Below are positions 30,118 to 34,273 of a stretch of DNA of 48,475 bases, piece after piece. How positions within the stretch are numbered: the stretch's first letter is position 1; each line of letters starts with the position of its first letter. A model generated the notes under the pieces. That model was not told where the DNA came from. It made no database searches and saw nothing but the letters and a program-made list of their open reading frames with translations. The position numbers were made by a program, and so were the translations under genes. The stretch comes from a virus (taxonomy: Duplodnaviria; Caudoviricetes): positions 1 to 48,475 of the IMG/VR virus record IMGVR_UViG_3300044724_001621; one strand, written 5' to 3'.

Positions 30118-30146
30118 ATACTATAGAGGCTAACAAGACTTGTCAA
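30118..30146 (-). promoter_or_regulatory. Sigma70-type promoter for ssb/replication operon
   Basis: TTGACA-N17-TAGTAT. Confidence 0.65.
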
Positions 30147-30178: not shown

Positions 30179-30205
30179 GAACAGTTTAAGCACATGTTCA
30201 GGTAC
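30179..30205 (-). ncRNA. H-type pseudoknot motif, copy C
   Basis: GUAC-CU-GAACA-U-GUGC-UUAAAC-UGUUC, 10 nt after stop codon. Confidence 0.7.
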
Positions 30206-30215
30206 AACGGAGAAT

Positions 30216-31229
30216 CTAAGCTGCGATTCTAAAGATAGACTTGCTCTGTAAAACCTTTCTAACTTTTTCTCCTGCTTGTACTTGCAAAGAAGAAACAGTG
30301 TGAGGACTTTTAGAACGAGTGGTCTGATGATGAGTACTCCAGTCAGTCATCGTATTATACAAGGCTAACAGATTGTTGCCAAGGGAAGGTTTGTAATCAT
30401 TTTTGTAAAGACTCCAAAGAGTATTTAACGAACTAGTCTTACGATCATGTCCGTTCTTAGTCTTAGTAGCTTTATCAAGTGCTTCAAGAATAGATCCAGT
30501 ACCATTATTAATTGAATCAATACTTTGAATAGCATGTTTATTTTCAGATAGTGTAGCAAGAACTTCAAAAGCTTGTTGGTCTGATACAGGTATATGTCTG
30601 TAACTATTCCAAAGCTCACCTTCTTTTTGAAAAGCTTCTAAACAATTACCAAGCTCAACCACTGCACCTTCAATGTTTGAATGCTTAGTATGTCTACGCT
30701 TTGCTACTGCAGTTACAGTACCAATAACTTGTAAGTTAGTACAAATCATACGCCAAGCACCAAGCTCAAAGATAGAAGGCCAAGAACCGTCAAAGCTATT
30801 TCTACCTACTAACTCCATAACAGTCTCATCACCCTCACCAGTCTGCACTGTATGCTCTGGAAAGCGATATCTAGCATAAGCTCTACCACCTTCATGAGAT
30901 ACACTTATCTCGCGTGTAAGACCTTCTAAGTTTAACGAAGAGTTAATAATCATATCTTCCATATAACCAAACTGATCAGCATGTGAAGAAGTATTACGAT
31001 AGTTTTTACCTACAATAGATAACGGCTCATGTGTTTGATCGTTCATAAGCAACACACGCTTGTCGTACTTAACCATACTATTCCATTCTGAATTAATAGG
31101 GTTAATTTCTTCAAACCATAATGGTCTTGTGTAAGTACCAAAAGTAACACTACTAGGTAACGGGCCTAAATCTTCTAGAATTTGTCGGCGTCTATCTGAA
31201 CGACTTGTAAATGTAGTAATAACATTCAT
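30216..31229 (-). CDS. DUF932/DUF945 family early protein
   Basis: NSFDGS...G.WRMICTN motif and LYNTMTDWSTH. Confidence 0.8.
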   Translation of the reverse strand: MNVITTFTSRSDRRRQILEDLGPLPSSVTFGTYTRPLWFEEINPINSEWNSMVKYDKRVLLMNDQTHEPLSIVGKNYRNTSSHADQFGYMEDMIINSSLNLEGLTREISVSHEGGRAYARYRFPEHTVQTGEGDETVMELVGRNSFDGSWPSIFELGAWRMICTNLQVIGTVTAVAKRRHTKHSNIEGAVVELGNCLEAFQKEGELWNSYRHIPVSDQQAFEVLATLSENKHAIQSIDSINNGTGSILEALDKATKTKNGHDRKTSSLNTLWSLYKNDYKPSLGNNLLALYNTMTDWSTHHQTTRSKSPHTVSSLQVQAGEKVRKVLQSKSIFRIAA

Positions 31230-31261
31230 GTTTCTTTTCCTTTAAAGTTTAATTGAGTGAG

Positions 31262-31289
31262 TAAAACCCCACAGGAACGAGGGGTTTTA
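31262..31289 (-). terminator. Hairpin, possible terminator or processing site
   Basis: TAAAACCCC-N10-GGGGTTTTA just after stop at 31298. Confidence 0.5.
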
Positions 31290-31297
31290 AACACGAG

Positions 31298-31561
31298 TTA
31301 CTTAATAACATAACTAAACTTATCAAGTTGTTCTTGATAATTAACATGGCTAATCAGTGCATCAGCAGCTAAGTCCCATTCTTTTTTATAAAGATTTAAA
31401 ACTAACCGCTTCTTTAGCTTTGATCCACCAGATAAACCTAGCAGACTGCTTACTTTCTTCCAACCTTTATCATAAGGATTGGAATGATCTCTTAACTTAT
31501 TTCTAAGAAAGGTGATCTTTTGTTCATAGCTCATATACTGTTTAGTTAAATTAGACGACAT
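31298..31561 (-). CDS. Hypothetical early protein
   Basis: GAGGAGG upstream; operon spacing. Confidence 0.7.
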   Translation of the reverse strand: MSSNLTKQYMSYEQKITFLRNKLRDHSNPYDKGWKKVSSLLGLSGGSKLKKRLVLNLYKKEWDLAADALISHVNYQEQLDKFSYVIK

Positions 31562-31564
31562 AAA

Positions 31565-31915
31565 TTATAAGTCCTCCTCTTCAGTATCTAATTCTAATTT
31601 AATAAGACTATTTTCTAAGTCTCTTTGCTTTTTTAATTTTTTACCGAGAGCATAACTAGCTACAAGACTAGTTATTAAACCATTAAAATATATTCTTTCT
31701 GATTCAGAGCTGCAATATCTTAATCTTTCATCTAAATGATTTAAGTAAGCTTTAGTAAGTTTACCTGAATAAGAACTTACACTTAAATGATTAATTTCTA
31801 CATTAAGTTTACTTACTAACTTTTTAAATGTAGTAAACTCTTCTTGTACAAAAGAACTTGAAGGAATATCTTCGTAGCTTTCTAACTCAATCATTGTTTG
31901 TTTAAGGGAACCCAT
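31565..31915 (-). CDS. Hypothetical early protein
   Basis: GGAG RBS before MGSLKQ; start revised from 31984. Confidence 0.7.
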   Translation of the reverse strand: MGSLKQTMIELESYEDIPSSSFVQEEFTTFKKLVSKLNVEINHLSVSSYSGKLTKAYLNHLDERLRYCSSESERIYFNGLITSLVASYALGKKLKKQRDLENSLIKLELDTEEEDL

Positions 31916-32025
31916 AACATTATCTCCGTAAGTTGATGATAGTACTAATAATAAATGTACTTGAGCCTTAGCAGTTAGTAGCAATTTAGCGACTCAAGCA
32001 CACTTAACTTTTAAACTATAAAAAT

Positions 32026-32054
32026 AGTTTAGCATATTTTTGAGTGATAGTCAA
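32026..32054 (-). promoter_or_regulatory. Sigma70-type promoter
   Basis: TTGACT-N17-TAAACT with extended -10 TG. Confidence 0.7.
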
Positions 32055-32057
32055 GTA

Positions 32058-32315
32058 TCACAAATAGTGATCTTCATGCCTAACTCTTTCAAATGTCTCT
32101 AACATTATATTATTTAAGACATCATTAATATTTTCAAAAGGTATGTATTTACCATTGACATCGACATGAGTAAACTCTACCTCTTCAGGATAACAAATCA
32201 TATTGGGCGGTTCATATTGTGGAGGTCTGTAATGAACTACACATGATCCTTTTACTTTACCTACTTTAAACTCCATAACACTACTATGATTACCATAGAA
32301 CGGATATTTTCTCAT
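32058..32315 (-). CDS. Hypothetical early protein
   Basis: ATGA coupling. Confidence 0.7.
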   Translation of the reverse strand: MRKYPFYGNHSSVMEFKVGKVKGSCVVHYRPPQYEPPNMICYPEEVEFTHVDVNGKYIPFENINDVLNNIMLETFERVRHEDHYL

Positions 32316-32551
32316 AAGCCTAGCTTCCTTTGCATTCCAATATCATGTAAAGTCTGAGGTTTCTTACGCTTTACTTTACCCTCTTTGATTACATAATACA
32401 TGCCATACTCAACAGTATTTGGATTCGCCATGTAAATAATAATCTCTACACCTTCAGAAAATTTATTTTCAAAACCCTGTATAGTTTTACTCATTACATA
32501 AATACCACTTGATGACTCACTTCTACAAGCATAATACATTAGTTTCTCCAC
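32312..32551 (-). CDS. Hypothetical early protein
   Basis: Overlaps both neighbours. Confidence 0.65.
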   Translation of the reverse strand: MEKLMYYACRSESSSGIYVMSKTIQGFENKFSEGVEIIIYMANPNTVEYGMYYVIKEGKVKRKKPQTLHDIGMQRKLGL

Positions 32552-32775
32552 TTCTGAAGTTTAACTAACTCTTTCGCACATGATTCTGTCATATGCAATT
32601 CAATATTGTAATCTTTTTTTAACTGTACAATACCTTTCATCATATTGATTTTAGCAATCCTAGCTTTTTTATACTCACCTAAATCATATCTTTTTGTAGA
32701 CTCCTGTAAAAAATACAGAATAAAATTAAGATCATTAGTAAGCTTTTGTTTCTCTGCTTGATTAATAGATAGCAT
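32539..32775 (-). CDS. Hypothetical early protein
   Basis: AAGGAAG RBS before MLSINQ; start revised from 32943. Confidence 0.65.
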   Translation of the reverse strand: MLSINQAEKQKLTNDLNFILYFLQESTKRYDLGEYKKARIAKINMMKGIVQLKKDYNIELHMTESCAKELVKLQKWRN

Positions 32776-32877
32776 ATTACTTCCTTTTTTAATTAAATTT
32801 TTAAAGCCCGTAAGGGTTGAGGGGTTTAAAAATTTAGATCCCTCAATAGTATTTCTAGACTTTGGTTTTAAAAAACT

Positions 32878-32904
32878 GAACAGTTTAACGACATGTTCAG
32901 GTCT
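32878..32904 (-). ncRNA. H-type pseudoknot motif, copy B
   Basis: AGAC-CU-GAACA-U-GUC-GUUAAAC-UGUUC, 10 nt after stop codon. Confidence 0.7.
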
Positions 32905-32914
32905 ATTTCCTCGG

Positions 32915-33118
32915 CTAAATAAAAGGCTGATTCTTATGATCATATAAATCTAAGATCAACTCTGATAACATTCCTTTGTATTTACTTTCTATACAATCAG
33001 GACTAATAGTTTCTAAAGAAGATATGCAATGCTGAGCTTTAGTCAACGCTGTTATTTTATCTTCTATATTCTTTATAATACTACAATGATCTTTCTGATC
33101 GTCTATAGAATCAAACAT
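32915..33118 (-). CDS. Hypothetical early protein
   Basis: AGGAG RBS. Confidence 0.7.
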   Translation of the reverse strand: MFDSIDDQKDHCSIIKNIEDKITALTKAQHCISSLETISPDCIESKYKGMLSELILDLYDHKNQPFI

Positions 33119-33163
33119 GTAATCTCCTACAATAGTATTTCTAGCTGGATGTTTTTTAAGAGC

Positions 33164-33190
33164 GAGCAGTTTATAGACATGCTCAGGTCT
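33164..33190 (-). ncRNA. H-type pseudoknot motif, copy A
   Basis: AGAC-CU-GAGCA-U-GUCU-AUAAAC-UGCUC, 9 nt after stop codon. Confidence 0.7.
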
Positions 33191-33199
33191 GTCGGGGAA

Positions 33200-33655
33200 T
33201 TAAGCTGTTAGTGTAGCTAAGAAGCTTTGAAGAACTTCAGATGCTGGTCTTGGACTAGCCTGAGTGCTGTACTTAGTCTGTTTCTTGTAAGCTGCTGCGC
33301 TCATATCTATGTTCTTCTCTTCAGCTTGTTGCATTAAATACTGATGAAGACCGGGAACAACATCGTCTAAAAGAACTAACTCTTTCTTTTCAGAACCTAG
33401 AAACTCTTGAACTATTCCATTGTTCAAAGCTGCTTCTTCGTTCTCAGCCTTAGACCATGAAACCATAAAGTCTAACAACAACTTATAAGCTTCATAGTTG
33501 CTAGAGATGCTAGGATCATTCTGCTTCATAAGATCAAAGTCCTCCTTGAACACTGGCTCAAACTCAGGTAAGCATGAAAACCTAGCTGCTATAGCTTTAC
33601 ACTGTGACTCTGTTGCTCTACGAATATTAGAAACACTAGACGTATTATTTTCCAT
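33200..33655 (-). CDS. First early gene, hypothetical protein
   Basis: AAGGAG RBS; first ORF of the minus arm. Confidence 0.75.
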   Translation of the reverse strand: MENNTSSVSNIRRATESQCKAIAARFSCLPEFEPVFKEDFDLMKQNDPSISSNYEAYKLLLDFMVSWSKAENEEAALNNGIVQEFLGSEKKELVLLDDVVPGLHQYLMQQAEEKNIDMSAAAYKKQTKYSTQASPRPASEVLQSFLATLTA

Positions 33656-33794
33656 CTGAGACTCCTTAAGTCTTTAGTTATTTAAGATTAACAAGCGTTA
33701 AAAGGATTTTTCAAGCTTGCAAGAAAGCAAGGTTGTAAAATTCTTAGCTTGTTGAGGTTAAATAACGTGAGGAGTTTCATATGGGAAATGATAC
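33642..33794 (+). repeat. Long imperfect inverted repeat, 153-nt hairpin
   Basis: About 60 bp in seven helices around loop AAGAAA (33721-33726); six G-T pairs on the + strand. Confidence 0.85.
33685..33714 (-). promoter_or_regulatory. Putative sigma70 promoter of first early gene, inside hairpin arm
   Basis: TTGAAA-N18-TAATCT with extended -10 TG. Confidence 0.55.
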
Positions 33795-34180
33795 AAACAC
33801 AGACAGGACTATTTAAATACTAAGCTATTGAGACTGTTAAGTTTTTTAGTCTAGTAATATCCTAGTAATACATACGCTTTACAGTCTTGGAAGGCTTTGT
33901 AAACTAGTAAGGCTTACAAAATAATACGATATAGTTCTATAAAGACTGTCTAGACTACCTAATTCTGTGGGCTACCTAGACCGGGCAGGATGCCATACCC
34001 CCTACCGTAGTATATATAGCAATCCTATACATTTCTAACAGGTTTAGTATGTGTACCAGCTTAGCGGGGCTATAAAGTCTTTACTTAACAACTTTGCAGG
34101 CTATAGAATCAGGAGGGTTTTATAGCTATATAGGGTGTTACCTATATATACTATGCAGCGGGGGGGTCATTGATTACGCC
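33795..34180. other. Non-coding putative genome terminus/packaging region
   Basis: No credible ORF; between divergent arms next to terS; inverted TAGTATATATAG pair, C/G runs, repeated CTATA words. Confidence 0.5.
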
Positions 34181-34209
34181 AGTATACAGTTGAAATCAGC
34201 TTTTGTCAA
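34181..34209 (-). promoter_or_regulatory. Sigma70 promoter, leftward
   Basis: TTGACA-N17-TATACT. Confidence 0.8.
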
Positions 34210-34237
34210 GTATTTATAACTAAAAAGTATAAAAAGC

Positions 34238-34266
34238 TTGACAAACCTTTGATTCAACTCTATAAT
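34238..34266 (+). promoter_or_regulatory. Consensus sigma70 promoter, rightward
   Basis: TTGACA-N17-TATAAT. Confidence 0.88.
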
Positions 34267-34273
34267 ACGAGTC

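Follow-up and report, generated by a model that had tools for sequence, protein, structure and literature searches.

Virus record IMGVR_UViG_3300044724_001621 (Duplodnaviria; Caudoviricetes) is a linear marine phage sequence of 48,475 nucleotides (nt), 93% complete, and its full length is referred to here as the window. Its replication genes form a T7-like set, its gene blocks are divergent, and its DNA polymerase is 52% identical to the enzyme of Pelagibacter phage HTVC103P. Small genes form a leftward run from a sigma-70-like site at 34209 to the genes for the single-stranded DNA (ssDNA)-binding protein and primase, and within it a 27-nt element – an H-type RNA pseudoknot, judging from the covariation of both its stems – occurs three times on the minus strand, each time shortly after a stop codon (Table 1).

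Table 1. Minus-strand features of the knot-bearing region, in leftward order
Feature	Position	Strand	Description
Sigma-70-like site	34181..34209	-	TTGACA-17-TATACT (11/12); head of the leftward run with the three copies
Gene upstream of copy 1	33200..33655	-	151 aa; no PHROGs, Pfam or PADLOC family
Knot copy 1	33164..33190	-	AGAC CU GAGCA U GUCU AUAAAC UGCUC; stem 1 AGAC/GUCU, stem 2 GAGCA/UGCUC, loop CU, junction U, loop AUAAAC
Motif CTAGAAATACTATTG, first occurrence	33130..33144	-	putative promoter-like motif after knot copy 1
Gene upstream of copy 2	32915..33118	-	67 aa; no PHROGs, Pfam or PADLOC family
Knot copy 2	32878..32904	-	AGAC CU GAACA U GUCG UUAAAC UGUUC; stem 1 GAC/GUC, stem 2 GAACA/UGUUC
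U6 tract	32870..32875	-	2 nt past copy 2
Motif CTAGAAATACTATTG, second occurrence	32844..32858	-	putative promoter-like motif after knot copy 2
DUF932 gene upstream of copy 3	30216..31229	-	
Knot copy 3	30179..30205	-	GUAC CU GAACA U GUGC UUAAAC UGUUC; stem 1 GUAC/GUGC, stem 2 GAACA/UGUUC
Sigma-70-like site	30118..30146	-	TTGACA-17-TAGTAT; begins 32 nt beyond copy 3 and precedes the gene for the ssDNA-binding protein

A preliminary description of the window had reported these three copies, and rereading the sequence bears it out: copy 1 lies 9 nt past the UAA at 33200, copy 2 lies 10 nt past the UAG at 32915, and copy 3 lies 10 nt past the UAG of a DUF932 gene at 30216. They are spaced by 286 and 2,699 nt, and the outer stem-1 pair of copy 2 is A.G, hence its stem of 3 base pairs (bp). 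A finder that requires pairing located no further copy anywhere in the record and no match in 835,100 shuffled bases; the 12-mer core has three exact matches in the window, against 0.34 expected even with one mismatch allowed.

The covariation of both stems first suggested by these copies holds in a larger alignment. Viral contigs were scanned three times, with one part of the element (stem 1, stem 2 or the loops) left free each time. With stem 1 free, the inner three pairs formed in 120/120 distinct viral matches and all four in 93, the second pair being A-U in 67, U-A in 38, C-G in 10 and G-C in 5, and the third G-C in 57, C-G in 55, A-U in 6 and another combination in 2. With stem 2 free, five of five pairs formed in 81 of 118 matches and four of five in 26 (at least four in 107), and its sequence is biased beyond the needs of pairing. 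With the loops free, loop 1 was CU in 84 of 110 matches and CC in 4, and loop 3 ended in AAAC in nearly all of the CU matches. The conserved CU and AAAC loops and the H-type topology of the preliminary description thus stand, and the fixed junction U of its consensus does not: the single base between the stems was A in 43, U in 42, G in 17 and C in 8 of the 110 loops-free matches, some of which are chance matches.

We aligned 84 distinct sequences: the three window copies and, following the order of the lists but passing over some entries, 36 of 76 from the first scan and 45 of 97 from the second. In this set 94.2% of cells pair, double changes are present in all nine pairs, and 152 cells are altered on both sides compared with 38.6 in shuffles. 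The covariation score is 0.598, against 0.181 when shuffled and at most 0.104 when partner columns are slid by 1-3 positions, where pairing amounts to 26-44%; column composition is biased because each scan fixes one stem. A DNA palindrome or a plain hairpin can be rejected because stem 1 covaries independently.

The knot is widespread. An estimated 1,200 or so IMG/VR stretches match with stem 1 free, on the basis of 123 loci fetched out of 7 of 64 parts. The same strict pattern matches about 160 stretches in GTDB genomes (596 billion bases), where stem 1 was paired in 68 of 124 matches; among the matches listed, those with an unpaired stem 1 are mostly inside or overlapping reading frames. A second pattern gave 115 of 127 paired in the same genomes. 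Carriers include phages or prophages of Firmicutes, Bacteroidota, Cyanobacteria, Proteobacteria and Patescibacteria, with one near-fixed consensus, and Saccharibacteria together with other Patescibacteria make up a striking share of the GTDB carriers (L124, L146, L154, L161, L166, L179, L231 and other loci). BLAST matches in named phages were checked for five records: the finder verified the knot in Roseobacter phage SIO1 and Lactobacillus phage phig1e, phiNM4 has it with one stem-2 mismatch, stem 2 is imperfect in AugustePiccard, and ST32 does not pass the finder. The few plasmid BLAST matches are candidates only. One match, at locus L167 (Saprospira grandis DSM 2844, minus strand, about 1496-1523), is itself a spacer flanked by direct repeats, each about 36 nt long, that resemble a CRISPR array, and this host therefore apparently met a knot-carrying phage.

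The preliminary description had proposed a comparison with Rfam, and no catalogued family emerged from it. Rfam 15 gave no match on the element in the whole window at the gathering score, on the copies in a 5-kb search with E up to 10, in the 91 nt surrounding copy 1, or on the knot itself at 70 loci at the gathering score; no catalogued Rfam 15 family fits it, including GP20-a/b, RAGATH and preQ1. We found no description of the knot in the literature, where it may sit among the candidates in the supplements of PMC5737381 or PMC10690425; neither describes it in the parts available to us. The consensus is also absent from 16/16 model phages with published transcript maps (phi11, 80alpha, Syn9, T4, T5, phiKZ, crAss001, SPO1, K, PAK_P3, LUZ7, phiTE, ICP1, HTVC103P, P-SSM2 and SPP1), which may explain why it was missed. 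It is apparently an undescribed as well as an uncatalogued phage element.

Placement relative to genes was assessed with calls from a simple purpose-made caller, checked on the window alone. The elements are intergenic in 208 of 216 cases, with 181 between two genes of the same strand, and at 21/21 multi-copy loci among L001-L080 all copies are on one strand. The gap from stop codon to knot has a floor: no copies at 0-3 nt, 4 at 4 nt, 33 at 5 nt and 14 at 6 nt, followed by a long tail. Measured to the first paired base, 43 of the 86 gaps of 12 nt or less are 5-6 nt. Ordinary terminator stems at the same loci lie at 5-6 nt in 3 of 30 cases and beyond 12 nt in 18 of 30, although these were measured to the first G-C pair, a different measure. 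About half of the knots are separated from a stop by >16 nt or lie in non-coding regions, and the spacing to the next start ranges widely (6 to >200 nt). The stops preceding the knot are UAA in 67, UAG in 18 and UGA in 11 of 96 cases, compared with 406, 120 and 225 in other genes.

Pfam families among the upstream genes include Hsp20 (11/43) and DUF932 (3/43), and 23 copies that follow hsp20 face 11 different downstream families; a count of pairs sharing upstream versus downstream families (253 against 16) is dominated by hsp20 and was not used. The DUF932 homologs of relatives at 76-77% and 29-30% identity are followed by a knot; none was found after those at 45% or 28%. Tail-to-tail junctions hold 5 of 187 copies, and at L154, a junction of this kind, the gaps are 5 and 6 nt. 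Divergent junctions hold 4 of 187, and among confident calls four are convergent and two divergent; because the counts are about equal, orientation alone is not decisive. Promoter-like sites follow 16 of 292 copies and, likewise, window copy 3.

Two recurrent arrangements stand beside these general patterns. In temperate phages of Firmicutes type the knot repeatedly precedes a scaffold-type gene ahead of the major capsid gene (L485, which is phiNM4, L504, which is phig1e, and L050, L069, L134, L163, L164, L263 and L383), with a second hairpin before the ribosome-binding site. Elsewhere, diverged tandem knots lie 34-60 nt apart in non-coding sequence, some directly before transfer RNAs (tRNAs), at L004, L153, L457, L555, L614, L630, L321, L616, L123, L287, L376 and L097, the last with three or four knots within 300 nt. 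At L303 and L326 the interval between two knots contains a tRNA-like sequence as well as a longer knot of related form, whose stem 1 has 5 bp and whose A-rich loop is extended.

A minority of copies lie immediately before a self-cleaving ribozyme. A type III hammerhead core was first noticed behind copies in L697; in untargeted sets totalling 506 elements it lies downstream of the knot in three, upstream in none and antisense in none. A targeted complete viral scan found knot followed by hammerhead at 12 of 97 loci (nine distinct), with predicted cuts 5, 5, 5, 6, 8, 8, 19, 19 and 21 nt past the knot, and a genome scan found six copies in 5 of 37 loci, three of them in one contig, with predicted cuts at 6, 6, 6, 7, 7 and 7 nt. 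The reverse order was found at 0/62 viral, 0/13 genome and 0/13 metagenome loci, using patterns that span limited spacings. Altogether 16 distinct copies precede a type III hammerhead (nine viral, six genome and L692), the predicted cut being 5-8 nt away in 13 and 19-21 nt in three, and of the 15 with a computed gap, 13 follow a stop codon by 4-7 nt. Rfam RF00008 confirms the hammerheads in L697 and L827; the others rest on a core-and-stem descriptor, and several of the loci are related.

A similar order is seen at tRNAs, with 11 copies 3-11 nt before a tRNA and two within 60 nt after one; in 4 of the 11 a stop lies 4-9 nt upstream. Cleavage by ribonuclease (RNase) P at such a tRNA would leave an upstream RNA ending in the knot plus a short tail. 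The placement expected of a 3'-end structure – 5' of a cut, with a short tail – is found in the hammerhead and tRNA subset only, where the cuts are predicted, and no ribozyme is present at any of the three window copies. At L683 and L697 a 13-bp perfect hairpin lies 2 nt past several knots, followed by a different predicted pseudoknot or hairpins, and may be an RNase III-type cut site taking the place that a hammerhead occupies at other loci. A RAGATH-1 hammerhead (L031:1521-1605) occupies a junction one gene upstream of a knot-bearing junction. Hammerheads are known to flank genes in prophages, and processing into gene-length mRNAs has been proposed (PMC3088659).

We think it probable, with room for doubt, that the knot acts as a 3'-end cap protecting the message of the upstream cistron, a reading drawn from sequence and position. 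It would halt 3'-to-5' exonucleases and so stabilise the cistron once the transcript had ended or been cleaved a few bases past the knot. Base triples formed in the grooves by the conserved CU and AAAC loops may render the knot unusually resistant to unwinding, and the 5-6 nt floor would mean that a ribosome paused at the stop codon stops just short of it. The 3' end itself would come from whatever follows – a U tract, a hammerhead, a tRNA cut by RNase P, or an endonuclease together with trimming – leaving a tail of 3-8 nt. Exonucleases need a minimum tail length to load, and such a tail would be too short. The order of knot and then cut is fixed beside hammerheads and tRNAs, with the cut predicted a few nt past the knot, and this argues for the cap, as does the anchoring of the knot to the upstream stop while the distance to the next start is broad. 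So do its association with the upstream gene across the 11 families downstream of hsp20, its presence where nothing downstream could use it (tail-to-tail junctions and sites before promoter-like sequences), and the single strand kept by multi-copy loci. The preliminary description had listed an exonuclease block and a processing signal among its alternatives, and it is to these that the evidence points.

Several observations weigh against a cap. In 8 of 292 copies an ordinary terminator hairpin, itself already a protection for the upstream RNA, precedes the knot within 60 nt, and the Firmicutes-type head clusters keep the downstream scaffold gene constant whatever lies upstream. At L022, L023 and L262 a -10 box precedes the start of the knot by 7-8 nt, which puts the knot at the predicted transcript start; divergent junctions are about as common as convergent ones; and a scheme of one cap per gene leaves the tandem non-coding copies unexplained. 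Copies linked to a hammerhead are few in the untargeted sets (3/506), several are related to one another, 2/16 reach the Rfam threshold, the reverse patterns cover limited spacings, and the window copies are themselves without a ribozyme. The terminator, scaffold-gene, -10-box, divergent and tandem placements fit better with a two-sided barrier or a protein-binding site than with a pure 3' cap.

Some of these data have been considered under other explanations. The knot could be a ribosome-termination structure or folding insulator that abuts the entry channel at the stop, blocks sliding and re-initiation, and shields the folding of the next element. Its 5-6 nt mode equals the offset of +9 from the first stop base given for structure outside the entry tunnel (PMC7518266), ordinary terminator stems mostly start further from the stop, and a knot before a hammerhead is predicted here also. 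We nonetheless regard this as unlikely, given that about half of the copies are distant from a stop or in non-coding regions, that any stable hairpin would serve and the fixed loop sequences go unexplained, and that the tight 5-8 nt distance to the cut is not predicted. Slightly more doubtful is an element acting in both directions or downstream, either as a barrier to 5'-to-3' decay by RNase J or as a landing pad for ribosomal protein S1 that raises expression of the downstream gene. Copies after terminators, before scaffold genes and at predicted transcript starts would suit it, as would the Shine-Dalgarno-like word found within 35 nt of 98 of 292 copies and the existence of an S1-selected H-type knot of similar size (PMC7708055). 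However, the knot was never found after a hammerhead cut in the reverse-order scans, there is no message downstream that a copy before a tRNA, a promoter or a convergent gene could aid, the spacing to the next start varies widely, and the loops of 2/1/6 nt differ from the 3/0/7 of the S1 aptamer.

The remaining explanations are more doubtful again. A pseudoknot form of intrinsic terminator or pause signal would account for the U tracts directly after the knot, which begin at offset 0 in 42 of 292 copies (A tracts in 15; at most 10 beyond 6 nt), and for window copy 2, where a 7-bp hairpin can precede the U6 tract. As a general account it is improbable, because a U tract is present in only 27 of 187 copies and shows no relation to the context that follows (Fisher p=0.28), an AG extending the alternative hairpin occurs in only 6 of 292, and transcription has to pass through any copy that precedes a tRNA or hammerhead; some copies may be terminators. 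Least probable of all is that the knot itself cleaves, as a minimal ribozyme, or recruits an endonuclease as a processing site: at 27 nt it is well below the size of known natural ribozymes, and the complete hammerhead or tRNA beside 27 copies would be redundant, even though its loop bases are near-invariant and it shares its gene junctions with phage-operon hammerheads (PMC3088659; L031).

That the knot is bound by a host protein, as its ligand or as a decoy for it, with type III toxins among the possible partners, is by analogy conceivable and very improbable. This reading includes the mimicry of ToxI- or CptI-like antitoxins put forward in the preliminary description, and the compact H-type fold with an A-rich loop against stem 1 is indeed shared with ToxI, CptI, TenpI and the phiTE pseudo-ToxI (PMC5086642, PMC12283969); some phages also have tandem copies with periods of 34-45 nt in non-coding regions, and the bias of stem 2 exceeds what pairing demands. 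The antitoxins are tandem repeats before a terminator and a toxin gene, with no cross-talk between systems (PMC5086642, PMC12283969), and are toxin-specific (PMC5086642). In contrast, the knot copies are dispersed after stops, outside any layout of promoter, array, terminator and toxin gene. The window has no tandem array, diverged tandem pairs occur in a minority of other loci, and a strict tandem pattern has two matches in all viral contigs. No toxin family is present among 82 neighbouring proteins (Pfam) or 12 window proteins (PADLOC), although a phage mimic need not carry a toxin gene; the consensus has no match in phiTE, and no Rfam antitoxin model matches the knot. With neither array nor toxin gene, no knot in phiTE, and one consensus across many host phyla although antitoxins do not cross-react (PMC5086642), antitoxin mimicry is not supported; the element is a real, widespread and uncatalogued pseudoknot.

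Comparison with other systems places the knot close to the intercistronic and 3'-terminal stem-loops that stabilise bacterial mRNAs, that is, repetitive extragenic palindromic (REP) elements and terminator hairpins, which are likewise untranslated, on the same strand, directly after stops and at segment boundaries. Unlike these it is a two-stem pseudoknot with conserved loops and usually no U tract, is enriched in phages, and is sometimes accompanied by a ribozyme or tRNA cut. The same logic is seen at the 3' triple helix of MALAT1 and NEAT1, which is left after RNase P cuts a tRNA-like element as a tertiary fold only a few bases from the new 3' end, and some knots sit in tRNA leaders; those RNAs, however, are eukaryotic long non-coding RNAs with a much larger U-A-U helix and have no sequence relation to the knot. 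The frameshifting (-1) pseudoknots of luteoviruses and poleroviruses, of beet western yellows virus (BWYV) type, are of similar size, with a 2-nt first loop starting with C, one junction base, an A-rich last loop and a ribosome spacing of about 5-6 nt. The present knot is instead past the stop and outside coding sequence.

A recoding element, another alternative in the preliminary description, is unsupported because a slippery heptamer 4-10 nt upstream was found in 0/96 cases, the stops are UAA-rich and there is no frame bias. Readthrough was also rejected, the sequence past the stop being in frame and open to the next gene in 3 of 58 cases. Beyond the UAA at 33200 the frame meets no stop for 27 codons, running through copy 1 to the ATG at 33118 (33119-33199, minus strand), which is not common to the other copies; at copies 2 and 3 an in-frame stop is reached within 6 codons.

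The clustered hammerheads of prophages occupy the same junction positions as the knot, and their own pseudoknot joins stems I and II inside the ribozyme (PMC3088659), whereas the present knot stands apart from the ribozyme, on the 5' side of the cut, and in most cases has no hammerhead beside it. Ribosome termination structures resemble it in being stable structures that start just outside the entry tunnel of a terminating ribosome, with a folding window that starts 9 nt from the first stop base, taken as the RNA outside the tunnel (PMC7518266); that class is defined by folding energy rather than by a conserved fold or sequence, and many knot copies are far from a stop. The loops of the S1-binding pseudoknot obtained by in vitro selection (SELEX; PMC7708055, Fig. 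S1) set it apart from the knot, and the T4 gene 32 pseudoknot is an operator 5' of its gene (PMC3014915).

In the window, the sites after all three copies may be read as promoters, weakly so for copies 1 and 2. The resemblance of CTAGAAATACTATTG to a promoter consists of a -10-like TACTAT plus TG with a weak -35, and the sigma-70-like site after copy 3 has a similar end; if that promoter is used, copy 3 is outside the downstream transcript. A repeated CTAG(A)(A/T)ATACTATTG motif precedes ribosome-binding sites at both CTAGAAATACTATTG positions, and also at L510-L512, with a poor -35 region, and is possibly an activator-dependent or phage-specific promoter class. The alternative fold of copy 2, a 7-bp hairpin leading into the U6 tract, suggests that this copy probably also acts as a terminator; the relatives L510-L512 have longer U tracts after their copies, in the order knot, U tract and promoter-like motif. 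The knot-bearing genes would be early genes, to judge from their position downstream of the TTGACA-17-TATACT site at 34209.

Two similar hairpins with AAACCCC/GGG arms lie directly before ribosome-binding sites at 32788-32831 and 31248-31291 (minus strand; z -2.6 and -4.4), and a sub-threshold Rfam match to DUF2815 RNA at 32773-32843 (20 bits, threshold 41.2) overlaps the former hairpin and not the knot. A non-coding stretch of about 620 nt (33656-34273) contains divergent sigma-70-like sites (34209 minus, 34238 plus). Metatranscriptome contigs of close relatives, from four runs, span all three knot copies and also cover non-coding 33839-34138, because of which DNA carry-over is possible; a non-coding RNA from 33656-34273 could explain the coverage of part of it, and so could DNA carry-over. 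These runs are assembled contigs, so that neither RNA ends nor levels can be read from them, and four further runs contained strain variants only.

With the knot acting as a 3' cap, the succession of gene, stop, knot, promoter and gene would make the early region of this phage a set of separately stabilised gene units. More tentatively than for the cap itself, phages of most bacterial phyla may share one minimal triple-helical knot as a universal 3' cap, with a cassette of stop, knot and cut (by hammerhead or RNase P) yielding individually capped single-gene messages. If so, the cassette would be the counterpart in bacterial viruses of the MALAT1 end and would explain how ribozyme-cut phage mRNAs survive. 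The order of knot and hammerhead makes a role of self-cleaving ribozymes in phage operons testable, together with the stabilisation of the cut pieces. If it blocks exonucleases, the knot would be among the smallest natural RNA caps, and a 27-nt part for stabilising or insulating cistrons across bacterial phyla.

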